Source: Candidatus Micrarchaeota archaeon
GTDB lineage: Archaea > Micrarchaeota > Micrarchaeia > Anstonellales > Anstonellaceae
Direction: 5' to 3'
DNA length: 22,883 nucleotides
Assembly (NCBI GenBank): GCA_013331805.1
Contig: DUFS01000070.1
Location: 1-22,883 of the forward strand
In this document: positions 659-19,092 of the stretch, piece by piece
Position numbering within the stretch: position 1 is the first letter of the stretch
Layout of the letters: each line of letters starts with the position of its first letter
Notes under the pieces: model-generated
Told to the model about the DNA's origin: nothing
The model's input: only the letters and a program-made list of their open reading frames with translations
Databases searched by the model: none
Position numbers and translations under genes: made by a program

Positions 659-1084
659 ATGGCATGGAAAATTGACGAAACCGACCGCAAAATAATGGAA
701 ATCCTGCGGGAAAACGCAAGGATTGCGAATGAAAAGCTCGGGGAAAAAATCGGGCTTTCCGAGCCTGCGGCAAGAAGGAGGGTGGCCAACCTCATTTCCC
801 GCGGGGTGATCAGGCGCTTCACTGTGGACATTGAGGAAGGGGGCGCTGTGAGCGCCCTGGTCTACCTTTCAACCTCCCCGCATGCCAGCTCTGACAAGGT
901 TTTCAGGCAGCTTAAGGGCCAGGACGGCGTGGGAAGCGTCTGGGAGGTCTCGGGTGACATGGATTTCGCCCTGACTCTTGCGGCACAGGACATGGACGCC
1001 TTGAACAGGAGGGTGGACGAGCTTCGCGCGCTGGACTCCATCAGGAAAACCAAAACCAGCATAATCATGAAAAAATGGAAATGA
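659..1084 (+). CDS. lysM: Lrp/AsnC family transcriptional regulator, LysM-like lysine-responsive regulator
   Basis: AsnC HTH (IDETDRKIMEILRENAR...GLSEPAARRRVANL..GVIRRFTV) plus RAM domain (VWEVSGDMD...TKTSII); directly upstream of the lys genes. The symbol refers to the archaeal Lrp-type LysM, not the peptidoglycan-binding domain. Confidence 0.85.
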   Translation: MAWKIDETDRKIMEILRENARIANEKLGEKIGLSEPAARRRVANLISRGVIRRFTVDIEEGGAVSALVYLSTSPHASSDKVFRQLKGQDGVGSVWEVSGDMDFALTLAAQDMDALNRRVDELRALDSIRKTKTSIIMKKWK

Positions 1085-1130
1085 AAAAATTCGCGAAGAA
1101 TTTTTTCAGAAGTGGAAATGGACTTTCCAC
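1082..1130. repeat. Two tandem perfect inverted repeats after the regulator stop codon (possible terminator or operator)
   Basis: TGAAAAAATTC-gcgaa-GAATTTTTTCA (1082-1108) and GTGGAAA-tggac-TTTCCAC (1112-1130). Confidence 0.6.
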
Positions 1131-1250
1131 CAGGATAGCTATTTTTTCAGAATTGGAGCGAGCAACGCGAGCTTTGGTAAGATGAAGAAATGAAAGTAGG
1201 AATTCCCCTTTTTGGCGCATTTGATACATTTTGTCCCATTTGGATCGGAC

Positions 1251-1260
1251 TTTTTAAATA
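1251..1260 (+). promoter_or_regulatory. Putative TATA box of the lysX paralog
   Basis: TTTTTAAATA ending 22 nt before ATG 1283, with no clear SD; spacing typical of a leaderless archaeal transcript. Confidence 0.55.
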
Positions 1261-1282
1261 AGGGGAAAGACGACTCATTGCC

Positions 1283-2134
1283 ATGAAACTTGGCCTATGC
1301 TACACAGTCATTTCTCCCGAGAACAAGATGCTCCTTGAGGCAGCTGAAAAAAGGGGGGTTGAGTTCGTCAGGATTGTGGATGGCGAGTCTGTGCTGCAGC
1401 TCAGCGGGAAGCCGAAAGAAGAGCTGGACGTGCTTCTGCAGCGGTCGGTCTCGTATTCCAGGGGGCTGTGCCTCGCCTATTACTATGAGAAGTCCGGCTG
1501 CCAGGTGATAAACAGCTACCAGGCGGCAAAGGTGTGCGGGGACAAGATGCTCTCCTCCCTTGAGCTTGCTTCGGCGGGCGTGCCCACTCCGAAAACAAAT
1601 GTGTGCTTTTCGCCCGAGGCCGCAATGGATGCAGCAGAGGACATCGGGTTTCCGATAGTGATGAAGCCTGTGATGGGCTCCTGGGCAAGGATGGTGAACC
1701 GGCTCAATGACCATGAGGCCCTTTCTATGGCAGTGGGCTGCAAGGAGGAGATGGGAAACCCCTGGCAGAAGATCTACTACCTGCAGGAGCACATAGACAA
1801 GCCGGGGAGGGACATCCGGGCTTTTGTCGTGGGGGAGGAAGTGGTCGCGGCGATTTACCGGAACTGCACAAAGGAATCGGGCTGGGTTTCAAATGCTTCA
1901 AGGGGGGGGCATCCCACGGAATGCGCTGTGACTTCCGAACTATCCGAACTCTGCCTGAGGGCGTCCAAAATCGCAGGAGAGGGCATTTACGGCGTGGATT
2001 TGATGGAATCCGGAAACGGGCTGGTGGTGCACGAGATAAACCACACGGCCGAGTTCAAAAGCTGCGCCTCTGCCACTGGCATAGACATTGCCGGCTCGAT
2101 AATCGACTACGCGGTATCGCGCGCAAAAAGTTAA
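1283..2134 (+). CDS. LysX/ArgX-family ATP-grasp [LysW]-amino acid ligase, divergent paralog (copy 1)
   Basis: RimK/LysX motifs CGDK, KPVMGSWAR, QEHIDKPGRDIR, GVDLME, EINHT. Colinear with 2489-3340 (192/283 identical aa by hand count), but the loop reads WVSNASRGG. Confidence 0.9.
   Translation: MKLGLCYTVISPENKMLLEAAEKRGVEFVRIVDGESVLQLSGKPKEELDVLLQRSVSYSRGLCLAYYYEKSGCQVINSYQAAKVCGDKMLSSLELASAGVPTPKTNVCFSPEAAMDAAEDIGFPIVMKPVMGSWARMVNRLNDHEALSMAVGCKEEMGNPWQKIYYLQEHIDKPGRDIRAFVVGEEVVAAIYRNCTKESGWVSNASRGGHPTECAVTSELSELCLRASKIAGEGIYGVDLMESGNGLVVHEINHTAEFKSCASATGIDIAGSIIDYAVSRAKS
1744..1854 (+). repeat. 111-nt exact direct repeat shared with 2950-3060 (lysX paralogs)
   Basis: Base-by-base identity at offset 1206. 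Other exact blocks: 1529-1557, 1658-1696 and 1979-2046. Confidence 0.9.
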
Positions 2135-2244
2135 GACCTGGCAGGGCATTTTGGCGATTTTAGCAATAAAAGCACAATAAAACAACTAAAATAGGAATAT
2201 TTCATACAAAATGTTCGATATATTGCATAAATTTGGCGGAATGC

Positions 2245-2252
2245 ATATAAAA
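2245..2252 (+). promoter_or_regulatory. Putative TATA box of the lysWXYZJK operon
   Basis: ATATAAAA in an AT-rich intergenic region; AGGAGG SD at 2282-2287 precedes the lysW ATG. Confidence 0.5.
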
Positions 2253-2296
2253 TGAGCGATGCACAAGGACTATCTCAGGTCAGGAGGATTGATGGA

Positions 2297-2467
2297 ATGG
2301 GAAACGCAGAATGCCCGGAATGCGCAGGGATACTAAGCCTGGCGCCGAACACCGAGGCAGGCGAGATAATGTCCTGCCCTGACTGCGGCGCGCGGCTGGA
2401 AGTGCGCTCGGTCAATCCGCCCCAGCTTGCGGCAGCGCCGAAAGTGGAGGAGGACTGGGGCGAGTGA
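2297..2467 (+). CDS. lysW: Amino-group carrier protein LysW (56 aa)
   Basis: ATG 2297 after AGGAGG; CPEC...CPDC zinc ribbon and the diagnostic C-terminal EDWGE. Confidence 0.97.
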   Translation: MGNAECPECAGILSLAPNTEAGEIMSCPDCGARLEVRSVNPPQLAAAPKVEEDWGE

Positions 2468-2488
2468 GCGCCTGGCAAGTGGTTTAGG

Positions 2489-3340
2489 ATGCGCATTGGA
2501 ATTTGCTACACTTTAATCTCGGCGGAAAACAAGATGCTCTTTGACGCCGCAAAAAAGGGCGGGGTCGGGCTGCAGCGCGTTGTGGACAGCGAGTCGCTCC
2601 TGCCCATCACCCAGAAGGAAAGCAAGGAGCTGGATGTGCTGCTTCAGCGGTCGGTATCCTTTTCGCGCAGCCTGTGCCTGACCTATTATTTCGAAAGGCT
2701 GGGCACTGACGTGATAAACAGCTACAAAGCTGCCAAGGTGTGCGGGGACAAGATGCTCTCCTCATTTGAGCTTGGCGCATCAGGGGTTCCAACTCCTAAA
2801 ACATTCGTGGCATTCACGCCCGAATCCGCCCGCCTTGCGGGGAAGAGGCTTGGCTTTCCGCTTGTGATGAAGCCTGTGATGGGCTCCTGGGCAAGGATGG
2901 TGCACAAGATAAATGACGAGGACGCACTTGACGCGGCGCTGGAGTCTCGGGAGGAGATGGGAAACCCCTGGCAGAAGATCTACTACCTGCAGGAGCACAT
3001 AGACAAGCCGGGGAGGGACATCCGGGCTTTTGTCGTGGGGGAGGAAGTGGTCGCGGCGATCTACCGGAACTCGACTGAGAAGTCTGGCTGGATAACCAAC
3101 ACGGGAAGGGGGGGCACGGCAAGCAAGTGCGAGGTAACACCTGAATTGCGCGAAATCTGCCTCAAAGCAGTGAAAATAGTGGATGAGGGCATTTACGGCG
3201 TGGATTTGATGGAATCCGGAAACGGGCTGGTGGTGCACGAGATAAACCACACCACCGAGTTTAGGAATTCCATTGCCCCGACCGGCGTGGACATAGCGGG
3301 AAAGATGATCGGGTACGTTATTGCGAGGGCAAAAAAATAG
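2489..3340 (+). CDS. lysX: Alpha-aminoadipate--LysW ligase LysX (copy 2)
   Basis: ATP-grasp motifs with LysX-type signatures WITNTGRGG and EINHTTEFRN; lies between lysW and lysY. Confidence 0.93.
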   Translation: MRIGICYTLISAENKMLFDAAKKGGVGLQRVVDSESLLPITQKESKELDVLLQRSVSFSRSLCLTYYFERLGTDVINSYKAAKVCGDKMLSSFELGASGVPTPKTFVAFTPESARLAGKRLGFPLVMKPVMGSWARMVHKINDEDALDAALESREEMGNPWQKIYYLQEHIDKPGRDIRAFVVGEEVVAAIYRNSTEKSGWITNTGRGGTASKCEVTPELREICLKAVKIVDEGIYGVDLMESGNGLVVHEINHTTEFRNSIAPTGVDIAGKMIGYVIARAKK

Positions 3341-3344
3341 GGGG

Positions 3345-4403
3345 ATGCTGATCGTGGCAAAGAAAATTTCAATCATTGGTGCATCTGGCTACACCGGAGG
3401 GGAGCTTCTGCGCTGGGCTCTGATGCATCCTGAAATGGAAGTGTTCCAGATAACGTCCGAAAGGTTCGCAGGGCAATCTGCATACAAGCTCAACCCGAAT
3501 TTGCGCGGCTTCACAACACTCGCCTTTTCGCCTGTGAAACAGCTGTCCACGGACGTTGACGCGATATTCATCTGCACCCCGCACAAGACAGCCGCGCCCT
3601 ATGTTGCGCAATTCCTCGAGACCGGGGCAAAAATAATCGACCTGTCAGCGGACTTCAGGCTGAAAAACAAGGACACCTATGCAAAATACTATGCAGTGCA
3701 TCCGCATCCCGAGCTTCTGGAAAAGGCCGTTTACGGCATCCCCGAGCTTCACCGCGAGGAAATCAAAAACGCCAAGCTGGTGGCATGCGCAGGCTGCCTT
3801 GCAACATCAGTGATACTGCCGCTTGCCCCGCTTATCAAAAACAAATTGATATTGCCCGAGGGGATAATCGCGGATTCGAAAATCGGCTCGTCCGCAGGGG
3901 GGGCGGGCTTTGACATTTCCACCCATCACCCTGAGCGAAGCGGGACAGTGCGTTCCTACAAGCCTTCGGGCCACAGGCACACAGCGGAAATAGAGCAGGA
4001 GCTTTCGGCATTGGCACTCTCGCAGGTTTCAGTCGGGCTCACCCCCCACGGAATAGAGATGGTGCGCGGCATACTTTCCACTGTGCATGCACGGCTTTCA
4101 GGAAAAGCCGCGGACATCGACCTTTGGAAAGCCTACCGATCGTTCTTTGCAGGCTCGCCCTTTGTGCGGCTGGTCAAGGACCAGAACACCCTTTACCGCT
4201 ATCCTGAGCCAAAGCCACTGGTGGGCACCAACTTTGCGGACATAGGATGGGAAATCGATCCTGAAAAAGGAAGGGTAATTGTGATGTCCGCGATCGACAA
4301 TTTGGTAAAGGGAAGCGGGGGCCAGGCAATACAGTGCTTCAACCTGATGAACGGATTGGACGAAAAAACCGGCTTGTGGCACCCGGGGTTCCACCCGCTT
4401 TAG
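3345..4403 (+). CDS. lysY: [LysW]-aminoadipyl-phosphate reductase (ArgC family)
   Basis: IIGASGYTGGEL Rossmann motif, IIDLSADFRL, catalytic AGC, DNLVKG. Start is ATG 3345 or GTG 3354. Confidence 0.95.
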   Translation: MLIVAKKISIIGASGYTGGELLRWALMHPEMEVFQITSERFAGQSAYKLNPNLRGFTTLAFSPVKQLSTDVDAIFICTPHKTAAPYVAQFLETGAKIIDLSADFRLKNKDTYAKYYAVHPHPELLEKAVYGIPELHREEIKNAKLVACAGCLATSVILPLAPLIKNKLILPEGIIADSKIGSSAGGAGFDISTHHPERSGTVRSYKPSGHRHTAEIEQELSALALSQVSVGLTPHGIEMVRGILSTVHARLSGKAADIDLWKAYRSFFAGSPFVRLVKDQNTLYRYPEPKPLVGTNFADIGWEIDPEKGRVIVMSAIDNLVKGSGGQAIQCFNLMNGLDEKTGLWHPGFHPL

Positions 4404-4411
4404 TGATTCCC

Positions 4412-5197
4412 ATGCTTGTGCTCAAAATCGGCGGCAGCATGGCTGAGAGGTCAGGGCGCCTCGCAGAGGAAATTGCGGCCTTGGGAGAGAAAATTGTCAT
4501 AGTGCACGGGGGCGGACCGCAGGTCAGCGCGCTTGAAAAGGCCACTGGAAGGGAGCCGAGATACGTTTTTTCCAAGGACGGCTTCAAGACCAGGCATACC
4601 GATTCGGGCACAATGGAGAATTTCGTGATGGCGGTTGGCGGAGGGGTGAATTCCCTGCTGGTGAGGCAATTTCGCAAGGCGGGCGTGAACGCCGTTGGAA
4701 TTTCGGGCGCAAGCGGCATAGTGTTTGCTAAAAGGAAAATTCTGGTGAGCTTTGAAAACGGCAGGGAAAAAATCATACGCGATGATTTTTCCGGGAAAAT
4801 CCAGGAAATCGATTCTGCCCCCCTGCTTGCGCTCTTGCAGGCCGGCTTTGTTCCCGTGGTATCCCCCATTGCGCTTGGCGAGGAGTTCGAGGCATTGAAC
4901 GTGGACGGCGACCGCGCGGCTGCTGCAATGGCGGGCAGACTCAAGGCCGAAAAGCTCCTGCTGTTCACTGACGTGGAGGGCTTTTTTTCTGATTTCCCGA
5001 ATGGGTTGGTAAGAAGCGCAAGGAAATCCGACATTGCGGAATTCCAGAAAAAAGCATCCGCAGGCATGAAAAGGAAGCTGGTTGCCGCAGGGGAAGCGCT
5101 TGAAGGCGGCGTGCAGGAAGTTGTCATCTGCTCGGGCCTGGGGGAAAATCCCATGAAAAAAGCGCTTGAAGGCGGCGGGACGCACATTACAAAGTGA
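4412..5197 (+). CDS. lysZ: [LysW]-aminoadipate kinase (ArgB family)
   Basis: Starts MLVLKIGGS at ATG 4412; VIVHGGG, LNVDGDRAA, TDVEG, GMKRKL. Confidence 0.95.
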   Translation: MLVLKIGGSMAERSGRLAEEIAALGEKIVIVHGGGPQVSALEKATGREPRYVFSKDGFKTRHTDSGTMENFVMAVGGGVNSLLVRQFRKAGVNAVGISGASGIVFAKRKILVSFENGREKIIRDDFSGKIQEIDSAPLLALLQAGFVPVVSPIALGEEFEALNVDGDRAAAAMAGRLKAEKLLLFTDVEGFFSDFPNGLVRSARKSDIAEFQKKASAGMKRKLVAAGEALEGGVQEVVICSGLGENPMKKALEGGGTHITK

Positions 5198-6369
5198 TTG
5201 GCGTGGACACAAACGAAATAATCGGGCTTGAAAAAAAGTACGAGATGAACCTCTACCCCAAGCGCGGCATAGCCCTGGCAAGAGGGGAGGGCGAGTTCGT
5301 ATGGGACACGGAAGGCAAAAAGTACATCGACTGCACCACCGGAGTGGGAGTCGCAATACTGGGACATGCGCACCCTTCGGTGATCGCAGCAATTGAACGG
5401 CAGTCCAAGGCGCTGATGACCTGCTACCAGCCCTTTTGCCATGAGGAAAGGGCCAGGCTTGAGCAGAGGCTGGTTTCTCTTTTCGGAGTTAACGGAAAGG
5501 TAATGCTTTCAAACAGCGGCACAGAGGCAGTGGAAGCCGCGCTCAAGCTTGCGCGCAGGCATACCAAAAGGAAGGGATTTGTTTCGGCAATGAACGCCTT
5601 CCACGGAAGGAGCTCGGGGTCGCTTGCGCTCACCTTCAAGGAAAAATACCGCTCGCCCTTTGAGCCGCTGATTGGGCCGATAGCCCGCGTCCGCTTCAAT
5701 GATGCTGAATCGCTGAAAGGCGCGGTCAATTCCGATACAGCCGCGGTTTTCCTGGAGCCTGTGCAAGGCGAGGGGGGAATCCGGCCTGCAAGCCAGGAAT
5801 ACCTGAAGGCTGCGCGCGACATCTGCACTGACAGGGGCGCGCTTCTCATTATGGACGAGGTGCAAAGCGGCTGCGGCAGGACCGGCAAGTTCTTCGCATT
5901 CGAGCATTTCGGGGTGCAGCCTGACATTGCCTGCCTTGCAAAGGGCTTGGGCGGAGGGATGCCGATCGGGGCCACAATTGCCAGGGATGAGGTGGCGACG
6001 TTTGGCCCAATGGAGCACGGAAGCACGTTCGGGGGCAATCCGCTTGCCTGCGCTGCAGCCAATGCAGTGCTGGGTACAATTGAAAAGGATAGGCTGCTTG
6101 AAAAGGTGGCTTCAGACGGCGAGTATTTGTCGCATCGGCTAAAGGCTGCACTTTCCTCAAAATCCGAATTCCGAGAGGTGCGGGGCATGGGGCTCATGGT
6201 TGCAATAGAGCTCAAGGTCCCTTCAAAGGAGCCGCTTGCCTCGCTTGTGCAAAACGGGGTGCTGGCGCTCCCCGCAGGCGAGCAGGTGATCAGGCTGCTT
6301 CCGCCATTCATAATATCCCGGGCCTCGCTTGACACTGTTGTGCAAGCCATTGCAGGTGTTGTAAAATGA
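5194..6369 (+). CDS. lysJ: [LysW]-aminoadipate semialdehyde transaminase (class III PLP, ArgD family)
   Basis: NSGTEAVEAALK, FHGR, EPVQGEGG, DEVQSG, AKGLGGG (PLP Lys), HGSTFGGNPLACAAA; GTGA overlap with lysZ. Confidence 0.95.
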   Translation: MIGVDTNEIIGLEKKYEMNLYPKRGIALARGEGEFVWDTEGKKYIDCTTGVGVAILGHAHPSVIAAIERQSKALMTCYQPFCHEERARLEQRLVSLFGVNGKVMLSNSGTEAVEAALKLARRHTKRKGFVSAMNAFHGRSSGSLALTFKEKYRSPFEPLIGPIARVRFNDAESLKGAVNSDTAAVFLEPVQGEGGIRPASQEYLKAARDICTDRGALLIMDEVQSGCGRTGKFFAFEHFGVQPDIACLAKGLGGGMPIGATIARDEVATFGPMEHGSTFGGNPLACAAANAVLGTIEKDRLLEKVASDGEYLSHRLKAALSSKSEFREVRGMGLMVAIELKVPSKEPLASLVQNGVLALPAGEQVIRLLPPFIISRASLDTVVQAIAGVVK

Positions 6370-7430
6370 AGAGCATGGATACAGTCGAATTCCTGGACAG
6401 GCTGATTCAGACTCCAAGCCCGTCCTTCCACGAAAGGAAGGCAGCCGAACTCTCTTTATCCTACCTCAGGCAGTTCTCATTCGAGCGCGCGTGGATTGAC
6501 GCGGCGGGAAACGCTGTTGCAAGCAACTACGCGCATAAAAAAGGGATGCGGCCAGACCTTCTCCTGTTCGGCCACCTGGATACCATTGCCTCGCCCATGC
6601 CCTACTGGCGCGAAAGCGACAAGATACACGGAAGGGGCGCGGTGGATGCCAAGTCCTCGCTTGCAGCCCTTTTTTCAGCGGCAGGCACGGCGGACGTCCC
6701 TTACAGGCTGATGGTTGCCGGAGTAACAGAAGAGGAGGCGACGACTTCAAAGGGGACGCACCACCTGCTCACCTACGCGAGGCCGAAAATGGCGATTAAC
6801 GGAGAGCCTTCGAACACCAACGGGGTGACCGTGGCATACAAGGGCAGGATGGTGGTGGAATGCCGCACGCACGGCAAGGCCTCGCACGCTGGCATGGCAT
6901 CGGAAAACCCGATTGAGAGGACCTTTGAGTACTACGCCAAGCTGCGCGAGCATTTCCCGCTTCACAAGAACCGGTTCGAAAACGTGATACTCAACCTCAC
7001 GCACATATCGGCAGGGTCGCAGGACGCGCTCAATGTGGTGCCGGAAACGCTGGATTTTTTCATAGACGTAAGGCTTCCGCCCTCGATGAAGAACAGCGAG
7101 GTGGGGAATGTTTTCAGGCGCCTTGCCCCGCAGGGCGTGAGCGTGAAGGTGCATGAGAGCCTGCCCGGAGTGGAAACAGACGTCAACCATCCGCTTTGCC
7201 GCTCATTGGTGGGCGCGATACGCGACGCGGGCCTTCCCCCCCGCTATGTGAAAAAGCACGGCAGCGCGGACATGAATGTCACCATGCACGCAGGGATACC
7301 CACCATTGCATACGGGCCGGGGGACTCGTCACTGGACCACACGCAGCACGAGTTCGTGCTCTTGAAGGATTACGAAATGGCGATAGGGGTTCTGAAAAAG
7401 GCGGCAAAAAACCTCGAAGTTTATTTTTGA
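6366..7430 (+). CDS. lysK: [LysW]-lysine hydrolase (M20/ArgE family)
   Basis: GHLDT, GRGAVDAKS, TEEE, GEPS, YGPGDSSLDHT; overlaps the lysJ stop. Confidence 0.93.
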   Translation: MKSMDTVEFLDRLIQTPSPSFHERKAAELSLSYLRQFSFERAWIDAAGNAVASNYAHKKGMRPDLLLFGHLDTIASPMPYWRESDKIHGRGAVDAKSSLAALFSAAGTADVPYRLMVAGVTEEEATTSKGTHHLLTYARPKMAINGEPSNTNGVTVAYKGRMVVECRTHGKASHAGMASENPIERTFEYYAKLREHFPLHKNRFENVILNLTHISAGSQDALNVVPETLDFFIDVRLPPSMKNSEVGNVFRRLAPQGVSVKVHESLPGVETDVNHPLCRSLVGAIRDAGLPPRYVKKHGSADMNVTMHAGIPTIAYGPGDSSLDHTQHEFVLLKDYEMAIGVLKKAAKNLEVYF

Positions 7431-7435
7431 AAAAA

Positions 7436-8035
7436 TCAGACGCTCCTTATGAAATCCTTGAATATCTCAACGAGCCTGAGGTAGTCTGACTTGGAGACCC
7501 ATTCCTTGTCGGTGTGCTCGCCTCCTGAAAGGGGCGCGATTGACATTGTGGGCATGCCGGATACGGCGAGCCTGTTGTCGTCCGCAACCGAGGTGCCGTA
7601 CACGAACGAGACGCCGCCTGACTTTTTCTTTGCGGCCTTGGCAAGGAGCTTCACATACTTGTTTTCCTTGGGTGTCACGTAGGGGGCAAGGTAAGGGGTT
7701 GCCCTTTCCTTGAGCCTCACGGTTATCCTCTTCCCGTCAATCGCCCTGAACCTGCCTTTTTTGTAGAGCTTTTCTACGAAGCGCTGCGTTTCGGAAAGCG
7801 CGCTTTGGGGGGTCTGCGGGCTGACCAGGTGCCTGTCCAGCTCGATTGTTGCGCTGTCCGGGATGGAAAGCGAGGTGCTCTCTGCCGAAAGCTTGCGGAC
7901 GAACTGTGTGGGCTGGGGAAGCAGCTTGTGCGAGCCAAGGTTTCCATTCAGCTGCTCAAGCTCCTCGACCAGCCGTGCGGATTCCACTATTGCCGAAATG
8001 CCATTTTCCCAAGCGCGCCATCGTAGTCCACGCTC
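7436..8035 (-). pseudogene. 5'-truncated M20/ArgE-DapE family metallohydrolase (dimerisation and C-terminal part only)
   Basis: Open frame from an in-frame TAG (8038-8036): ENGISAIVESARL...IPDSATIELDRH...SVADDN...GGEHTDKEWV. The N-terminal HxD/DxK/EE metal-binding half is absent. Confidence 0.7.
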
Positions 8036-8133
8036 CTAACGCTTTTAATAATGCAGTGCATGCCAGTTCGCCCGGTCCTGTTTTGTTTTATTGAAGCGGC
8101 CTTTCCAGCCAATGCAGCGTCGCCATAAGCGGA

Positions 8134-9126
8134 TTACGCCAATAATGAGATTATCTTTTCCACCATTTCGCTGGTTTTTGCGCTGCCGCCAACGTCCTTT
8201 GTCTTTACTCCGAGTTCGTAGCACTTGAGGATGGCTGCGCTGAGTTTTTCACCTGCGAACTTTTCCCCGATGTGCTCAAGGAGCATGGCAGTGGAAAGAA
8301 GCATTCCTGTTGGGTTCACGACATCCAGCCCTGTGTATTTGGGCGCGGAACCGTGCACTGGCTCGAAAAGCGCGTGTCTTTCACCGTAGTTGCCGGATGG
8401 TGCCATGCCCAGTCCTCCGATGAGCGCGGAGGATTCGTCCGAAAGTATGTCGCCGAAGAGGTTGGTGGTGACAATCACCTGGAACTCTTGGGGGGATTTG
8501 ACAAGGCGCATGGCTACTGAGTCAACGAGTGCGTCTTCGCAGGCTATGCCCTGATAGCCGCTGGCTACTCTGCGGGCTGTTTCCAGGAATAATCCGTCCG
8601 TCATGCGAAGAACGTTTGCCTTGTGCACAATCGTTACTTTTGAAAACCCTTTTCTCTTTGCGTACTCGAAGGCAAAGCGCGCAATCCGCTCGCTGGCGTT
8701 CTTTGTGATTACGCGGGTGGCTGTTGCTTTGTCGCCTTGCTGCGATTCAATGCCGGAATACATGCCTTCGGTGTTCTCCCGGACTATGGCAAAATTCAGC
8801 TGGGGGAAAGGCACTGGAACGCTTGGAAGAGAATGGATTGGGCGGAGGTTGGCGTACAATCCCAGCTCCTTGCGGAGAGCGACTATGGCACTCTTGTAAT
8901 TGGGGATGCTTGGAGGGGTGGTGACTGCGCAGAATAGTATGGCGTCCGAGGATTTGGCAAGGTCGATTGTTTGTTGCGGGAGGGACGTTCCTTCCTCCTG
9001 GAATGCAGCATAGCCAGCCTCCCCTTTCACCCATTCCACTTTTGCAAGCGAATCCACTGCCCTGCGCGCATGCGAAACCAGCCCGGGGCCAACCCCGTCG
9101 CCTTCAATGTAGAGGATTGTTTTCAT
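8134..9126 (-). CDS. Homoisocitrate dehydrogenase (isocitrate/isopropylmalate dehydrogenase family)
   Basis: Starts MKTILYIEGDGVG at ATG 9126; LYANLRP, RENTEG, VHKANV, NLFGDILSD, EPVHGSAP. Substrate inferred from context. Confidence 0.88.
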   Translation of the reverse strand: MKTILYIEGDGVGPGLVSHARRAVDSLAKVEWVKGEAGYAAFQEEGTSLPQQTIDLAKSSDAILFCAVTTPPSIPNYKSAIVALRKELGLYANLRPIHSLPSVPVPFPQLNFAIVRENTEGMYSGIESQQGDKATATRVITKNASERIARFAFEYAKRKGFSKVTIVHKANVLRMTDGLFLETARRVASGYQGIACEDALVDSVAMRLVKSPQEFQVIVTTNLFGDILSDESSALIGGLGMAPSGNYGERHALFEPVHGSAPKYTGLDVVNPTGMLLSTAMLLEHIGEKFAGEKLSAAILKCYELGVKTKDVGGSAKTSEMVEKIISLLA

Positions 9127-9136
9127 GCTGCCGCCC

Positions 9137-9634
9137 TCAGGAAACCAGGCGCCCAATATCATCTATCTTGTGATTCTTGAGGAATTCTAGGATGCCGCCT
9201 TGCTCCTTGAGCGCAAGAAGCATTGGGGAGATGGAAGCTGGAGTTCTTGCGCCGGTGGTCAGATTGACTGCCTCGTCATTCTCAATTTTCAGCTGGTGGC
9301 TTTCCTCAACGTCCTGGGCGAATTTCTCATCGACAACCACCAGCACCAAGCCCTGGTTGATTGCATTCCTGTAGAATATGCGCGCAAACGAGGGCGCGAG
9401 AATTGCCTCAATGCCGCACTCCTTAAGCGCACTCACCGCTGTTTCACGAGAGGAGCCGCATCCGAAATTCCTCCCAGCCACAATGAAGTCGCCCATCCTT
9501 ACGTTCGCAGCAAATTCCGGCCTGTGCTCTATGAATGCGATTTTTGCAAGCTCGCGCCTGTCAGTGGTGATGTTGTGCCTTCCAGGAGTGATGAGGTCGG
9601 TGTTTATCGAGTTTCCGAATTTCCAGACGCGCAT
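9137..9634 (-). CDS. Homoaconitase small subunit (LeuD/HacB/LysU family)
   Basis: VWKFGNSINTDLITPG, GRNFGCGSSRE, SFARIFYRNAIN. Confidence 0.92.
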   Translation of the reverse strand: MRVWKFGNSINTDLITPGRHNITTDRRELAKIAFIEHRPEFAANVRMGDFIVAGRNFGCGSSRETAVSALKECGIEAILAPSFARIFYRNAINQGLVLVVVDEKFAQDVEESHQLKIENDEAVNLTTGARTPASISPMLLALKEQGGILEFLKNHKIDDIGRLVS

Positions 9635-9643
9635 AATACCAGC

Positions 9644-10894
9644 TCATTTGAGATATGCCCTTGGGTCGGTTATTTTCCCAGTCAGGGCGGATGCTGCTGC
9701 TGTTGCAGGCGAGGCAAGGTATATTTTCGCCTTTGGGGAGCCCATCCTGCCTGTGAAATTCCGATTCGAGGTCGAAACGCAGACATCGTCATCGCCAAGC
9801 ACGCCCATGTGCCTTCCCAGGCATGCCCCGCAGCCAGGCGGGGCTATTGTTGCGCCCATTTTCGAAAATTCCATGAGAAAGCCGTTGAGAAGGCCCTGCT
9901 CGTATACTTCGCGGCTTGCAGGCGTGACTATGAATTTGACGCCCTCCTTCACCTTCCTGCCCTTCATTATCTTGTAAGCCACTGCCAGGTCCTCTATGCG
10001 GCAATTTGTGCACGAGCCCAGGAAAACCTGCGTTATGGGCGTGCCCTCCATTTCCGACACTGGCACGTCGCGGTCAATGTCAGGCGGGCAGGCGAGAGTG
10101 GGCTCTGTTTTGGAGATATCAATGTCAAGCACGCGCTCGAATAGCGCATCATCATCCGAGCGAAGCTCTTTGAAGGGCTGGTAGCGGTTCTGCCGTTCCA
10201 AATAGGCGCGGGTTTGGGAGTCGGCTGGCACTATGCCTGTCTTTGCCCCGATTTCCGCGCACATGTTGGTGAGCGTTAACCGCGAGGGAACGCCGAAATC
10301 CGGAATCGCGCTGCCTCCGAACTCCACGACACGGTAGTTCGCGCCCTCGCTTGAGAGTTCTTTCGCAATGCCGAGTATGACGTCCTTGGGGTAGGAGCCC
10401 AGCGGCAGCTTGCCTTCCAAGTTTATCCTGATTGTCTGCGGCACGCGCACCCAGATTTTTCCGGTTGCCATTGCTACAGCTGCGTCTGTGGAGCCAAAGC
10501 CCACGCACATCGCGCCAATACCGCCGCCGGTGGGAGTGTGCGAGTCCGCGCCAAGCAGGAAGGTATTCGGGTAGGTATAGCTCTCTGCCATCACCTGGTG
10601 GCACACCCCGTCGTAGTGGATTTTAACCCCCTGCTCGCGGCAGAAGCGCTCTATCTTGCGGTGCATCTCCGCCACCTGCAGGTTTGGCGCAGGATAAGCG
10701 TGGTCGAAGAAGATGAATATTTTTTTTGGGTCGAATACTTTCGCAGCTATCTGGCGGAAAGGCTCGATTGCCCACGCGGTCGTAGTGTCGTGCGCAAGCA
10801 CGTAGTCCACGTTGATGACCGCCATGTCCCCTACCGAAAGTGGCCTTCCGGCGTGCTCGGAAAGTATTTTTTGTGCAAGGGTTTCTCCGGACAT
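9644..10894 (-). CDS. Homoaconitase large subunit (LeuC/HacA/LysT family, [4Fe-4S])
   Basis: Starts MSGETLAQKI at ATG 10894; DH, GADSHT, GSCTN, CGACLG, STSNRNF. Confidence 0.93.
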   Translation of the reverse strand: MSGETLAQKILSEHAGRPLSVGDMAVINVDYVLAHDTTTAWAIEPFRQIAAKVFDPKKIFIFFDHAYPAPNLQVAEMHRKIERFCREQGVKIHYDGVCHQVMAESYTYPNTFLLGADSHTPTGGGIGAMCVGFGSTDAAVAMATGKIWVRVPQTIRINLEGKLPLGSYPKDVILGIAKELSSEGANYRVVEFGGSAIPDFGVPSRLTLTNMCAEIGAKTGIVPADSQTRAYLERQNRYQPFKELRSDDDALFERVLDIDISKTEPTLACPPDIDRDVPVSEMEGTPITQVFLGSCTNCRIEDLAVAYKIMKGRKVKEGVKFIVTPASREVYEQGLLNGFLMEFSKMGATIAPPGCGACLGRHMGVLGDDDVCVSTSNRNFTGRMGSPKAKIYLASPATAAASALTGKITDPRAYLK

Positions 10895-10909
10895 GGTTAA
10901 CACCAATGA

Positions 10910-11167
10910 TTACTGCTTGTTTTCCGTTGACTCAAGAACGATGTACGTAGTGGTTTCCTTGACGCCCCCGCACGCCCTTACGGCCTCCACCAGATTGTTT
11001 ATTTCATGGAGCGAGTCGCTTTGCGCGAAAATCAGAAGATCAAGCGTTCCGGTAAGCTCATATATGGTCTTTACCCCCTTGACGGGCCTTATGCTTGCCA
11101 CTATATTCGCGGTCTTGATTTTCTCGTCTGTTACAGCACCTATGAACACCGATATTCCGCTTTGCAT
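10910..11167 (-). CDS. Stand-alone Lrp/AsnC ligand-binding (RAM) domain protein, 85 aa
   Basis: GVKTIYELTGTLDLLI...GVKETTTYIVL RAM pattern with no HTH; GAGGTGG SD overlaps the hcs stop. Confidence 0.85.
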   Translation of the reverse strand: MQSGISVFIGAVTDEKIKTANIVASIRPVKGVKTIYELTGTLDLLIFAQSDSLHEINNLVEAVRACGGVKETTTYIVLESTENKQ

Positions 11168-11176
11168 GAAACCACC

Positions 11177-12253
11177 TCAGATTGCGAAATCAAACAGGTC
11201 CCGCTCCTTTTCCTTCAGGCGCGCGAGGGCCTTTTCCAGCTGCGGGTCCGACATTTTCATCCCCAGCGTTTCCGACAAGTAGCGCAGGATGTTCTTGCCG
11301 GAATAGCCGCCGACAACGAGCCTGCGCCTCCTTCCAATGCTTTCGGGCGAAAACGCCTCGTAGGATGCGCCCTCCTTGAGCACTGCCGCAAGGTGCGTGC
11401 CGCCCTTGTGGCGGAACACGTTCTCACCCACCACAGGCGAGAACGGGTCGGTCGGAAGGCCTGAGTGCTTGGAAAAGGAAGCCGAAAGCTCGACCAGCTT
11501 TTCCACTTTTATGTCCTTTCTCTGGCCGTAAAGCACCTGGAGAGCCATTGCCACTTCGGCTACTTTCGGTATTCCCGCACGCTCGCCAGCCCCGTTCACA
11601 GAAGCGTGTATGCAGTCCGCCCCTGCCTCCACGCCGGCAAGCGCATTTGCAAGCGCGAGCCCCAGGTCGTTGTGGCAGTGCACGTCAATGCCAGCGTCCG
11701 TGGCTGCGCGAACTTCCTTTACCACCGCGAACATGGCGGCAGGAGTCATTATGCCCACCGTATCGGTGATCGAAATCCTGTCCGCCCCGGCTGCCGTGGT
11801 CCGCCTGACCATCTCAAGCAGATAGTCCAGCTCGGTCCTCGAGGCGTCCTCGCAGGTGAAACGGAGCTTCAGCCCATGAGCCTTGGCAAACTCCACCATT
11901 TCCACGCCGTGTTCCAGCGCCTGCCCGCGGGAGAGGTGCAGCTTGTTTGCCAAGTGCATGTCTGAAGTGGAAAGGTACATTGCTATGAAGGAAGCGTCAA
12001 GGTCAAGCAATGACTCTATGTCCTCCTTTTTCGCCCTGCAGTGGAGCACCACAGTCGCACGCGGCTTTTCTGCCATCAGCCTGCGCGCTATCTCACGCTG
12101 CTTGTGACCGACTATGGGAGACACTTCAATGAAGTCAACGCCTGACTGGTCGATTTGGCTGGCAAGCTGCAGCGCCTCGCTTTCGGAGAAGTGCACAAGG
12201 GGCGCCTGCTCGCCCTCGCGCAAGGTGGAGTCCAGCAGAAGGGTCTTTCCCAT
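11177..12253 (-). CDS. Homocitrate synthase (DRE-TIM metallolyase)
   Basis: Starts MGKTLLLDSTLREGEQ at ATG 12253; HCHNDLG, GAGERAG, HKGGTH. No LeuA-type regulatory domain; context supports HCS. Confidence 0.9.
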   Translation of the reverse strand: MGKTLLLDSTLREGEQAPLVHFSESEALQLASQIDQSGVDFIEVSPIVGHKQREIARRLMAEKPRATVVLHCRAKKEDIESLLDLDASFIAMYLSTSDMHLANKLHLSRGQALEHGVEMVEFAKAHGLKLRFTCEDASRTELDYLLEMVRRTTAAGADRISITDTVGIMTPAAMFAVVKEVRAATDAGIDVHCHNDLGLALANALAGVEAGADCIHASVNGAGERAGIPKVAEVAMALQVLYGQRKDIKVEKLVELSASFSKHSGLPTDPFSPVVGENVFRHKGGTHLAAVLKEGASYEAFSPESIGRRRRLVVGGYSGKNILRYLSETLGMKMSDPQLEKALARLKEKERDLFDFAI

Positions 12254-12270
12254 AGGTTGCTTGTGGTGGC

Positions 12271-12360
12271 ATTTGTTTATAAATAATTCGTTAAAAAACA
12301 ACTAAAATCAAATATTTATAAATAAAATATAACTAAATTCGTTAAAAAAAAGAAATATAT
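12271..12360. promoter_or_regulatory. AT-rich divergent promoter region for the hcs operon and malic enzyme
   Basis: Palindromic TTTATAAA at 12276-12283 and 12315-12322; 14-bp direct repeat AATTCGTTAAAAAA at 12285-12298 and 12336-12349. Confidence 0.65.
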
Positions 12361-17188: not shown

Positions 17189-18199
17189 CTATTCTGCTTT
17201 TGCCTGCGGGCTTGCGCCAAATGCAGAAAGCACCTCTGCGAAATCAGAGTACTGGAGCGCGCCTGCGAACACTATTCCCAAGCCCGCGCCCTGCACTTCG
17301 ACTGTGTTTACGGGCAGCCTGAACTGCGAATACCTTGCGGAAAGCGCCTGCGCCTCCTCTTGCGCCTTTTTCCTAGCCGCCTCATTTGCGCCTGACTTGG
17401 AGAACACTAGGAAGGAGGGGGTTGCCCTAACTCCCACGGACGCTGCCTCGGCTGCCTGTGCCGCCACTGCCTGCGCTGTTTTGTTCGATCCCAGGCAGGA
17501 GTCGAATTCCGCCTGGTCCAAAGAAAGCCCAAGGGCGTATTCCTTGAGTGAATCGACCGAAAGTGAGTTCTGGCTGGCAAAAAGCCCGTCATGCATCTCC
17601 CAGAATTTCCCCTGCAGGCCAGCGCACTCTGCCGCCTCTGCCGCTTTCCCTGCAGAAGGGTGGCTGGCAAGCGGATAATTCCTGAAAACATGCTTGATTT
17701 GGGGATAGTCCTGCCTTATTTGCATCAAGGTGGGCTGCGCCTGGGCGCAAAATGGGCACTGGAAATCCGAGTACTCCACCATGATTATTTCCGCCTCCGC
17801 ATTCCCAAGGAAGTGCGCATTGTCATAGGTGGCAGACGATACCGGCCCCGCAGGCTGAGGCTCAGGCAGGGCAGGCTGTTGCGCAGGCGGTTCTTTCTGG
17901 ATAGGCACGCTTTTCAGGGGCGCGACCGGCTCGCCGCCTGATGAAAGGCTGATAAATAGCATGCCTGCTGAGAGTATGAAAACCAATGCCATTGCTGCCC
18001 AGAATATGGTGTCTGGCTTTTTTTCCTTTTGCGCCTGCTGTTCGGCAGAATAGGCTGCAGTTGACTTTACTTCAAAAACTGGAGTTGGCTTTCTGAACTG
18101 GGATCTTGCTTTCCTGAAGGTTGCCGCTTTTCCCTTAGCCACACGAGTTGGCCTGGTTCTTTTTTGCCTGGGTTTAGACTTGTTTTTCCTTTTGGCCAT
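17189..18199 (-). CDS. Membrane-anchored DsbA-like thioredoxin-fold protein (CPFC)
   Basis: EYSDFQCPFC, FRNYPL, AAECAG.QGKFWEMHD, GVRATPSF; basic N-terminus, then TM and a Pro-rich linker. Confidence 0.88.
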   Translation of the reverse strand: MAKRKNKSKPRQKRTRPTRVAKGKAATFRKARSQFRKPTPVFEVKSTAAYSAEQQAQKEKKPDTIFWAAMALVFILSAGMLFISLSSGGEPVAPLKSVPIQKEPPAQQPALPEPQPAGPVSSATYDNAHFLGNAEAEIIMVEYSDFQCPFCAQAQPTLMQIRQDYPQIKHVFRNYPLASHPSAGKAAEAAECAGLQGKFWEMHDGLFASQNSLSVDSLKEYALGLSLDQAEFDSCLGSNKTAQAVAAQAAEAASVGVRATPSFLVFSKSGANEAARKKAQEEAQALSARYSQFRLPVNTVEVQGAGLGIVFAGALQYSDFAEVLSAFGASPQAKAE

Positions 18200-18228
18200 G
18201 CAAAAAAACCTCCGCTAGGACAGGGGGA

Positions 18229-18262
18229 AGAATAAATAAAAAGGAGGGCCCCTTGCGGGGCC
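18229..18262 (-). terminator. GC hairpin plus T-rich tract after the CPYC DsbA-like gene
   Basis: On the minus strand: GGCCCC-GCAA-GGGGCC followed by CTCCTTTTTATTTATT. Confidence 0.55.
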
Positions 18263-18273
18263 GGATTTGGCTA

Positions 18274-19092
18274 TTACTGGCTGGCAAGCAGCGAGTCGAC
18301 GTAAGACTTCAGCGAGGCATACTCCGCCCCGTTGGGAAGTATCTGGCCGTTTACACCAAAAGAAGGTGTCCCCTGCACCCCCACGCCGTTTGACTGGGCT
18401 GTGCTCTGGGCAACCAGGCTGTCATACTTGCCCGAGTCAATGCAGGAAGCCATCGCGGCGCTGTTGAAGCCCGCCTCTGCGGCAAACTTCTTGAGGTTGG
18501 CCTTGCTGAAAGTGCCCTCATTTTCCCCCTTCTGCTCGTCGAATATCTTGTCGTGCATCTTGAAGAACGCCTCGTCCCCTCCGATCTCACGCGCGCAGTA
18601 TGCCGCGTTTGCCGCATCCACGCTTTCCTGGCCCAGGAATGCCATGGGCTGGTAGACGAACCTCACCTTTCCTGCCTTGGCATATTCCTCCACAATCTTG
18701 GTGGCTGTGCCGCGGATGGGATCATAGCGCGTTCCCCCGATGTCAAGGCCGTAGACAATGCCGCAGTACGGGCACTGGAAGTCTGCGAATTCGATCACCG
18801 TGACCTTTGCGTCCTTGGGCCCTATCGAGGGAGCGTCAACCACCCAGGACCAATCGCCCTGCGAAGCCTGCGCCTGGGCGGCTGGCTGCTGAGCACCGGC
18901 GGTTGCGCCTGCCTGCTGGGCGCCGGCAGCAGCCGCGGCCGCAGCTGGCGCCGTTAACTTGATGCCCGCAATCGCCCCCTTCAGGTCGCCCACCCCGACA
19001 TAGATTGTTGCCGAAACCAGAAGAGCTGCTAGTATAATTGCTATGCCAATGACATACTCGCCCTTTTCCAATGAACCGTTCTTGTCCGCCAT
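18274..19092 (-). CDS. Membrane-anchored DsbA-like thioredoxin-fold protein (CPYC)
   Basis: GGAGGTGG SD; N-terminal TM; Ala/Gln linker; EFADFQCPYC, AAYCA, GVQGTPSF. Confidence 0.9.
   Translation of the reverse strand: MADKNGSLEKGEYVIGIAIILAALLVSATIYVGVGDLKGAIAGIKLTAPAAAAAAAGAQQAGATAGAQQPAAQAQASQGDWSWVVDAPSIGPKDAKVTVIEFADFQCPYCGIVYGLDIGGTRYDPIRGTATKIVEEYAKAGKVRFVYQPMAFLGQESVDAANAAYCAREIGGDEAFFKMHDKIFDEQKGENEGTFSKANLKKFAAEAGFNSAAMASCIDSGKYDSLVAQSTAQSNGVGVQGTPSFGVNGQILPNGAEYASLKSYVDSLLASQ

Follow-up and report, generated by a model that had tools for sequence, protein, structure and literature searches.

Which amino acid does the second LysX-family ligase of a Micrarchaeota lysine cluster load onto the carrier protein LysW? 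The question was raised by a stretch of 22,883 nucleotides (the window; contig DUFS01000070.1 of assembly GCA_013331805.1, C57 in our numbering), in which two ligase genes, copy 1 (protein P0001) and copy 2, flank a single lysW gene within a complete aminoadipate-type lysine cluster (659-12301). The source genome (G000) is a 1.19-Mb metagenome-assembled genome (MAG) of a small groundwater archaeon, in 83 contigs, 91.5% complete with 1.3% contamination; the public proteins nearest to its own carry the labels Candidatus Micrarchaeota or Anstonellaceae. For copy 1, comparison of sequences led us to lean, by no great measure, towards an independently evolved glutamate-LysW ligase, a putative functional analogue of ArgX. 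The features on which the argument is built are as follows.

1085-1282, plus strand: AT-rich 198-nucleotide spacer before copy 1, found by sequence inspection
1283-2134, plus strand: copy 1, LysX-family ATP-grasp ligase with the motif F181-I191-A205-S260-C261; proposed glutamate-LysW ligase
1744-1854, plus strand: 111 nucleotides shared without difference with 2950-3060 in copy 2; gene-conversion tract whose end lies shortly before loop 1
1883-1909, plus strand: specificity loop 1 of copy 1, WVSNASRGG, residues 201-209, with A205 in place of the LysX Thr
1979-2046, plus strand: 68 nucleotides shared without difference with 3185-3252 in copy 2, located between the two loops
2033-2068, plus strand: specificity loop 2 of copy 1, EINHTAEFKSCA, with S260-C261 in place of the LysX Asn-Ser
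2252-2467, plus strand: lysW, amino-group carrier protein with the tail EEDWGE (TIGR01206, 64.9 bits, cut-off 53.2)
2489-3340, plus strand: copy 2, canonical LysX (F-I-T-NS), an aminoadipate-LysW ligase by sequence

Two intact ligases around one carrier gene

Each copy was an intact open reading frame (ORF) of 283 codons without stops on the plus strand. BLASTP aligned the two proteins with 192 identities over 282 residues (68%), no gaps and an E-value of 1e-153. A genome-wide search returned one full copy of lysW and, on a different contig, a weak match to a LysW-like zinc ribbon that lacks the EDWGE tail; no second EDWGE-tailed carrier was found in the genome. These results agree with an earlier note on this DNA, which had described two gap-free paralogues about 68% identical on either side of a single lysW and had proposed the search for further carriers. 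The loops quoted there were also exact (copy 1, WVSNASRGG at 1883-1909 and EINHTAEFKSC; copy 2, WITNTGRGG and EINHTTEFRNS). A contig from an independent public run bridged the 3' end of copy 1, lysW and the 5' end of copy 2 (2017-2893) with one differing letter, which indicates that the tandem arrangement did not arise in the assembly of this MAG. Public contigs for comparison came from four runs of four studies; none spans the whole stretch, and gaps in their cover are not evidence. Among the public runs listed as containing the stretch, none was an RNA run.

The zinc ribbon is a 50-residue LysW-type protein ending in ...KED (C59:7002-7139, minus strand; L116:3997-4149; PF21344, 34.8 bits). 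It is flanked by a DUF7343/CarboxypepD_reg protein and by a protein with an Ig-like domain.

Copy 1 scored 312.2 bits and copy 2 311.2 bits against the NCBIfam LysX equivalog model TIGR02144 (cut-off 275.6). Copy 1 had the two-domain architecture of the LysX/ArgX family, with a LysX_preATP_grasp domain (PF22626, residues 3-84) followed by a RimK ATP-grasp domain (PF08443, residues 87-276), and its neighbours are an EDWGE-tailed LysW and lysYZJK. In a family alignment of 13 sequences, its own among them, 52 columns were invariant; they cover the Lys of KPVxGSW, the GRDIR block, and Glu and Asn of the E-x-N block, and we take the catalytic residues to lie among them. Its best solved relative was the LysX of Thermus thermophilus (TtLysX; E 1e-66), and the similarity leaves the LysX-type fold of copy 1 certain. 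Against the solved structures, copy 1 and copy 2 scored 228 and 226 bits with TtLysX and 151 and 160 bits with the Sulfolobus/Sulfurisphaera ArgX (StArgX; PDB 3VPB). By sequence, copy 1 is a member of the LysX/ArgX family which lies outside the canonical ArgX clade and lacks the strict LysX signature.

Pocket loops held apart despite gene conversion

The signature sites of Thermus LysX are F182, I192, T203, N258 and S259; LysX enzymes carry the motif F-I-T-NS, ArgX I-Y-V-GF and the bifunctional Thermococcus enzyme Y-I-T-NA (PMC12998189). The five TtLysX sites (182/192/203/258/259) were mapped to residues 181/191/205/260/261 of P0001 via HMMER alignments to 3VPD, 5K2M and 3VPB, which reproduced all three published motifs. 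Copy 2 displayed the textbook LysX motif F-I-T-NS. Copy 1 read F-I-A-SC: three of the five sites differed from the LysX signature F-I-T-N(S/T), none matched the canonical ArgX signature, and only the Ile was shared with the bifunctional type, in a genome which has two ligases and not one. The loops do carry the published specificity residues, as the earlier note had claimed (sites from PMC12998189, mapped through the PDB alignments), and its statement that copy 1 fits neither signature can be extended to all three published types. This is less remarkable than it seems because the motif varies widely in the family, with 27 types among 93 homologues, and because a non-canonical ArgX has been published: the glutamate-specific Natrinema enzyme has Ala-Leu at the last two motif positions (PMC10433800). 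Many LysX-family genes in loci L029-L107, mostly from Chloroflexota, had T-M, T-A or T-L at these two sites and not N-S, an additional, uncharacterised motif class; one example, I-M-T-TM, occurred in 15 loci.

The copy 1 motif proved to be a conserved type. An alignment of 139 rows (database hits of at least 250 residues plus ORFs from the relatives' loci) contained 95 rows with F-I-T-NS and 21 with Ala at the third site and Cys or Leu at the last: F-I-A-SC (10), F-M-A-SC (5), F-I-A-GC (3), F-M-A-AC, Y-M-A-GL and F-M-A-GL (one each). Two locus rows duplicate database rows, so that about 19 of the 21 are distinct. When these 21 rows were compared with 74 close F-I-T-NS rows, seven of the 283 positions (202, 205, 209, 256, 259, 261 and 273) were fixed differently at the 80% level, six of them within the two loops. 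A205 was present in 21/21 copy-1-type rows and T205 in 74/74 close LysX rows; at position 260, the 74 rows have N by definition of the motif and the copy-1-type rows S, G or A. In Thermus numbering, site 258 of the clade is thus S/G/A and site 259 C/L; since Leu stands at the latter in two members, a catalytic role of Cys261 is unlikely. The copy-1 type was found in four of the 23 genomes of the genus, all GTDB species representatives (G000, G007, G010 and G015).

Two database proteins, P0005 (F-I-A-NS) and P0016 (an F-I-T-NS 'sister'), were considered as evolutionary intermediates and rejected; each combines copy-1 and copy-2 alleles and switches between them at the identical tracts. Assembly chimerism is their probable origin, recombination the other candidate, and they could mislead motif surveys.

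Within the window, the proportions of synonymous (pS) and nonsynonymous (pN) differences between the two copies were 0.52 and 0.19 by the Nei-Gojobori method, a ratio of nonsynonymous to synonymous rates (dN/dS) of 0.26. In 30-codon windows, pS was 0.4-0.8 over most of the gene and dropped to 0.07-0.11 at codons 151-195 and 0.31 at codons 226-255. These dips contain the 111-nucleotide (1744-1854 = 2950-3060) and 68-nucleotide (1979-2046 = 3185-3252) identical tracts, which flank loop 1 and end before loop 2, and public contigs break or cross over at the same tracts (joints 1743->2950 and 3061->1856). Gene conversion between the copies is demonstrated by these data, and the tract pattern would be expected where conversion makes the two genes alike and selection maintains the difference between their loops. 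Orthologous copy-1 pairs had dN/dS values of 0.06-0.15, with dS saturated, from which the copy-1 clade is judged to be under purifying selection. Copy-1 orthologues were 66-72% identical to each other, versus 74-80% for copy 2.

The LysX/ArgX tree which the earlier note had proposed was built with 74 rows in IQ-TREE (quick search, LG+C20+F+G4 by posterior mean site frequencies, support by the SH-like approximate likelihood-ratio test, SH-aLRT, only). The set comprised a 92-row set minus 32 redundant rows plus 14 rows from the order of G041. A profile scan of genome contigs had returned 80 loci, mostly from Chloroflexota and none from Sulfolobales; the canonical ArgX references were taken from genomes of the order of G041, which holds a Pyrodictiaceae match, and were recognised because they had the I-Y-V-GF motif and the exact loop sequences of 3VPB. 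The 16 copy-1-type rows formed one clade (SH-aLRT 99) deep within the genus's own LysX clade. Canonical ArgX rows branched off basally in the family, and a separate clade was formed by the argF-linked ligases of other Micrarchaeota. Copy 1 did not group with canonical ArgX, and forcing its clade together with six ArgX-type rows was rejected by the approximately unbiased (AU) test (65.9 log-likelihood units worse, p-AU 7.7e-5). A first quick tree of the 92 rows split the copy-1 type in two groups; this was a search artefact, the constrained tree being 15.6 log-likelihood units better, and monophyly of copy 1 was not rejected (p-AU 0.657; the group was named only after inspection of the tree).

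The earlier note had suggested that copy 1 derives from this lineage's own LysX. The nested tree and the AU test speak for that origin, but homogenisation towards LysX has to be named too: with conversion seen and residues 1-150 barely separating the paralogues, the same tree would result if LysX had overwritten nearly all of an older paralogue. We consider it improbable that copy 1 is such an old ArgX-type paralogue, still glutamate-loading and overwritten by the neighbouring LysX via repeated conversion. The two tracts show that conversion did take place; over residues 1-150 the copy-1 orthologues were 58-69% identical to each other and 59-66% identical to copy 2 proteins; and over residues 256-283 copy 1 proteins were 50-61% identical to the ArgX-like P0117/P0122 versus 39-61% to LysX proteins of the genus. 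However, pS between the paralogues outside the tracts (0.4-0.8) is near between-species values, so that the overwriting would have to be old and nearly complete; the copy 1 loops are nearer to LysX loops than to those of the argF-linked ligases (19-27% identity over residues 196-232); and a clade with canonical ArgX was rejected.

Ligase pairs internal to a lineage were also seen elsewhere in the trees. Two bacterial tandems, in an Acetothermia MAG (L062) and a Neomarinimicrobiota MAG (L039), consist of an F-I-T-NS LysX and a second ligase (F-A-A-ES or Y-T-V-GN). As in Micrarchaeota, each of these second 'x' copies clusters beside the LysX with which it is paired; in addition, an L-M-Y-GL copy stood beside T-I-T-NV in G089 and G098. 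Recurrent derivation of a second ligase may, from these trees, be common.

The predicted substrate of copy 1

Lysine and arginine synthesis in Sulfolobus share a single LysW and a single LysZYJK set, and only the steps of LysX (aminoadipate) and ArgX (glutamate) are specific; in Thermococcus, one ligase serves both pathways (PMC12998189). The catalytic steps and the substrate of copy 1 we infer by analogy with this family. Copy 1 would have arisen from the lineage's own LysX by re-tuning of the pocket, T to A at the T203 site and NS to SC at 258/259 (Thermus numbering). It would activate the gamma-carboxylate of the C-terminal Glu of LysW with ATP and join it to the alpha-amino group of free L-glutamate, not of 2-aminoadipate. 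The shared LysZ, LysY, LysJ and LysK would then convert LysW-Glu to ornithine, which the products of carA-argF-carB, argG and argH, encoded elsewhere in the genome, would convert to arginine; copy 2 would continue to load aminoadipate for lysine.

The gene content of G000 is consistent with this proposal. A search for argF, argG and argH, as advised in the earlier note, found all three, with argF in a carA-argF-carB operon on contig C21. Only one LysY/ArgC and one LysZ/ArgB were present, both inside this cluster, and neither ArgJ nor LysA was found in any of the 23 genomes of the genus, G000 included. Because there is no ArgJ and a single LysY and LysZ, ornithine, if made at all, must pass through LysW, and a glutamate loader is needed. 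Two argG-family matches over cut-off were found in G000 (C32:29733-30926 and C19:11419-12489, 467 and 311 bits), as in most genomes of the genus.

Among G000 and its relatives, ornithine carbamoyltransferase (OTC) scored over cut-off in 8/8 genomes with a second ligase. These second ligases were of the copy-1 type in four genomes (G000, G007, G010, G015), of an L-KS type directly beside argF in G006, G013 and G023, and of an H-GF type 1.2 kb from argF in G035. In contrast, OTC reached its cut-off in 0/6 genomes having only an F-I-T-NS ligase (G003, G008, G014, G017, G020, G022); G001 (55% complete), with OTC and a LysX at a contig edge, was not scored. The slot between the regulator gene upstream of copy 1 and lysW occurred in three forms: empty, filled by copy 1, or filled by an argW-argX-argF module. 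It was empty (regulator-lysW-lysX) in the six single-ligase genomes. The order regulator-copy1-lysW-lysX was found in G000, G010 and G007, and the G015 locus read copy1-lysW-lysX with no regulator match; copy 1, lysW and copy 2 thus occur in this order, with lysYZJK, in 4/4 copy-1 species. In G006, the order was regulator, second carrier (tail EEDFGE), L-KS ligase, argF, lysW and lysX, and G023 was the same from the second carrier on.

These second carriers (L024:2365-2664, minus strand, in G006; L025:1257-1442, plus strand, in G023) lie directly upstream of the divergent ligase and argF. Second carrier, ligase (L-V-L-KS or F-I-L-KS) and argF together resemble an argW-argX-argF module, the ligase motif being of a K-S type not described before.

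The pocket itself was compared with that of glutamate-linked ligases. The Thr at site 203 is lost in these enzymes (V or I in canonical ArgX, L or H in the argF-linked types) and is Ala in copy 1; site 258 is small (G in Sulfolobales-type ArgX, A in Natrinema ArgX, S/G/A in the copy-1 type); and site 259 is non-hydroxyl (F in canonical ArgX, L in Natrinema ArgX, C/L in the copy-1 type; Natrinema residues from PMC10433800). The changes in copy 1 therefore appear to go in the same direction as in glutamate-loading enzymes. The strongest shift of Thermus LysX towards glutamate was obtained when sites 203 and 258/259 were changed together with 192 (PMC12998189).

Several observations weigh against a glutamate-loading copy 1. 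It is no nearer to StArgX than copy 2 is (151 versus 160 bits). The motif is insufficient for specificity: Natrinema ArgX given LysX residues remains glutamate-specific (PMC10433800), and all single-site variants of Thermus LysX retained aminoadipate activity (PMC12998189). A smaller pocket, the effect stated for the V/G-F set, does not necessarily follow from residues as small as Ala, Ser and Cys. Six genomes of the genus (G004, G009, G012, G016, G018, G019; 0.8-1.0 Mb, 87-100% complete) have OTC, argG and argH, and LysX and LysY were not found in them; OTC alone thus does not imply endogenous ornithine, and this gene content suggests that such genomes rely on imported ornithine. The co-occurrence of OTC with a second ligase also comprises few independent events, close kin having their states in common: the six single-ligase genomes form two lineages on the copy-2 tree, leaving about 2-3 contrasts. 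Lastly, the lysine branch is eroding in some relatives. Homocitrate synthase orthologues were found in 6/23 genomes of the genus at E 1e-60, and neither homocitrate synthase nor homoaconitase (0/5 each at E 1e-10) was found in G010, G007, G014, G017 and G022 (75-92% complete), which keep lysW-lysX-lysYZJK; these may salvage aminoadipate or use the LysW line differently.

Part of these observations would suit a copy 1 which still loads aminoadipate, either as an isozyme with other regulation or kinetics or as a promiscuous aminoadipate/glutamate enzyme of the Thermococcus LysX kind; the loop changes would in that case do no more than tune affinity. Besides the single variants, several combined substitutions in the Thermus LysX motif kept aminoadipate activity (PMC12998189). 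F181 and I191 of copy 1 are still LysX-type, both copies score alike against TtLysX, and the spacer upstream of copy 1 makes separate regulation possible. We nevertheless regard this explanation as unlikely, if deserving of attention: Ala and Thr at position 205 separate the two groups without exception, and an isozyme would not need every discriminating site in the pocket; the loops are spared by the conversion tracts; and OTC follows the second ligase (8/8 genomes versus 0/6). Were copy 1 an ordinary LysX isozyme, the finding would be routine. The lack of any direct sign of decay speaks against a decaying or non-catalytic duplicate, which we hold to be highly improbable. Copy 1 orthologues do diverge faster than those of copy 2, but in 4/4 species the 283-residue ORF is intact; copy 1 has every family-invariant residue, its derived motif is conserved and dN/dS is low (0.06-0.15).

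The Ala/Ser/Cys set matches no characterised enzyme and, its residues being small, could enlarge rather than shorten the pocket. In that case aspartate, 2-aminopimelate or some other third dicarboxylic amino acid might be the substrate of copy 1, from which LysZYJK would yield a third diamino product; G010 and G007 keep both ligases though the genes of aminoadipate synthesis were not found there. There is little to recommend this, since only glutamate and aminoadipate are known as substrates of LysW ligases (PMC12998189), G000 has an unmet need for a glutamate loader, and no extra downstream genes lie beside copy 1 in any of the four species. Equally doubtful is the wider proposal in which copy 1 either loads such an amino acid or has a different acceptor, with a third diamino compound made by the one LysW/LysZYJK line; if true, the amino-group carrier system of these DPANN archaea would have a new function in primary metabolism. 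Among the options of the earlier note, comparative genomics favours the convergent ArgX, and nothing points to a new acceptor or a new chemistry.

Several known systems stand close to copy 1. Like StArgX, it is a second LysX-family ligase beside LysX with one carrier and one LysZYJK set, and it differs from LysX at the same pocket sites 203, 258 and 259; unlike StArgX, it reads F-I-A-SC and not I-Y-V-GF, scores only 151 bits against that enzyme and falls outside its clade. With Thermus thermophilus LysX (PDB 3VPD, 1UC8) it shares the F182 and I192 equivalents. In the glutamate-accepting variants of the Thermus enzyme, T203 and N258/S259 were replaced, together with I192Y (PMC12998189), sites 203 and 258/259 being those also changed in copy 1; the residues are engineered V, G and F in one case and natural A, S and C in the other. 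The ArgX of Natrinema gari, a haloarchaeal glutamate-ArgW ligase, likewise departs from the Sulfolobus type, its motif ending in Ala-Leu; it has a carrier to itself, is not paired with a LysX and serves only the synthesis of arginine (PMC10433800). The copy-1 clade members P0022, P0024 and P0037 similarly have A or G at site 258 and L at 259; our trees are without haloarchaeal sequences. Thermococcus kodakarensis LysX (PDB 5K2M) also uses one carrier and one enzyme set for lysine and ornithine, but there a single Y-I-T-NA ligase does both, whereas G000 has two ligases, and of that motif only the Ile occurs in copy 1.

In the accepted model, the carrier-protein pathways of lysine and arginine split once from a bifunctional ancestor, and ArgX and LysX are old paralogues. 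A second ligase for arginine and non-canonical ArgX motifs in haloarchaea are already known. No paper on such a second ligase in Micrarchaeota or DPANN was found, in a search which reached few subscription journals. If copy 1 loads glutamate, a specialised LysX has been turned back into the entry enzyme of the arginine pathway inside one DPANN genus, by three pocket substitutions different from those of Sulfolobales or haloarchaea, while conversion kept the rest of the genes alike. Nature would in this way have paralleled what was recently engineered in Thermus LysX, and the two copies would provide a compact pair (68% identical, 7-8 discriminating sites) for dissecting the specificity for glutamate versus aminoadipate, which the published five-residue motif does not fully explain (PMC10433800, PMC12998189). 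The main value of the locus is this clean natural test pair, with pocket loops held apart against gene conversion; it also bears on the degree of amino-acid autonomy kept by Micrarchaeota.

The remainder of the cluster and the window

On the plus strand, the cluster runs from an Lrp/AsnC regulator gene through copy 1, lysW and copy 2 to lysY, lysZ, lysJ and lysK (3321-7430); the genes for the synthesis of aminoadipate follow on the minus strand (8134-12301). The remaining features of the cluster are listed below.

659-1084, plus strand: Lrp/AsnC-family regulator (LysM-like), directly upstream of copy 1 (NF040947 LysM, 124.1 bits, under the cut-off of 180)
3321-4403, plus strand: lysY/argC reductase, sole copy in the genome
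4334-5197, plus strand: lysZ/argB kinase, sole copy in the genome
5194-6369, plus strand: lysJ/argD aminotransferase
6366-7430, plus strand: lysK hydrolase
8134-9162, minus strand: homoisocitrate dehydrogenase-like
9137-10906, minus strand: homoaconitase small (9137-9634) and large (9644-10906) subunits
10910-11167, minus strand: stand-alone Lrp/AsnC ligand-binding (RAM) domain protein, 85 residues
11177-12301, minus strand: homocitrate synthase-like (LeuA/HCS family)

An orthologue of the regulator was found upstream of the cluster in nine of the 12 relatives' loci that reach far enough. In the spacer between the regulator and copy 1, inspection of the sequence revealed a TATA-like TTTTTAAATAA at 1251-1261, about 27 nucleotides before the copy 1 ATG, making the spacer (1085-1282) a possible separate promoter for copy 1. 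The lysW ORF has 71 codons from its first ATG; the family match begins at residue 19, and GGAGG precedes the ATG at 2297. The latter is probably the true start, giving a protein of 56 residues. The 85-residue RAM protein, whose gene has that of homocitrate synthase on one side and those of homoaconitase on the other, could serve as a small sensor of amino acids.

A 183-residue ORF convergent with lysK (7436-7987, minus strand) matched only the dimerisation and C-terminal parts of M20 peptidases. A duplicate of LysK was ruled out (34% identity over 44 residues), and the ORF is possibly a truncated gene. Further along the window (17189-19092, minus strand), two adjoining thioredoxin-like proteins matched the Rcas_1661 (seleno)lipoprotein family under its cut-off.

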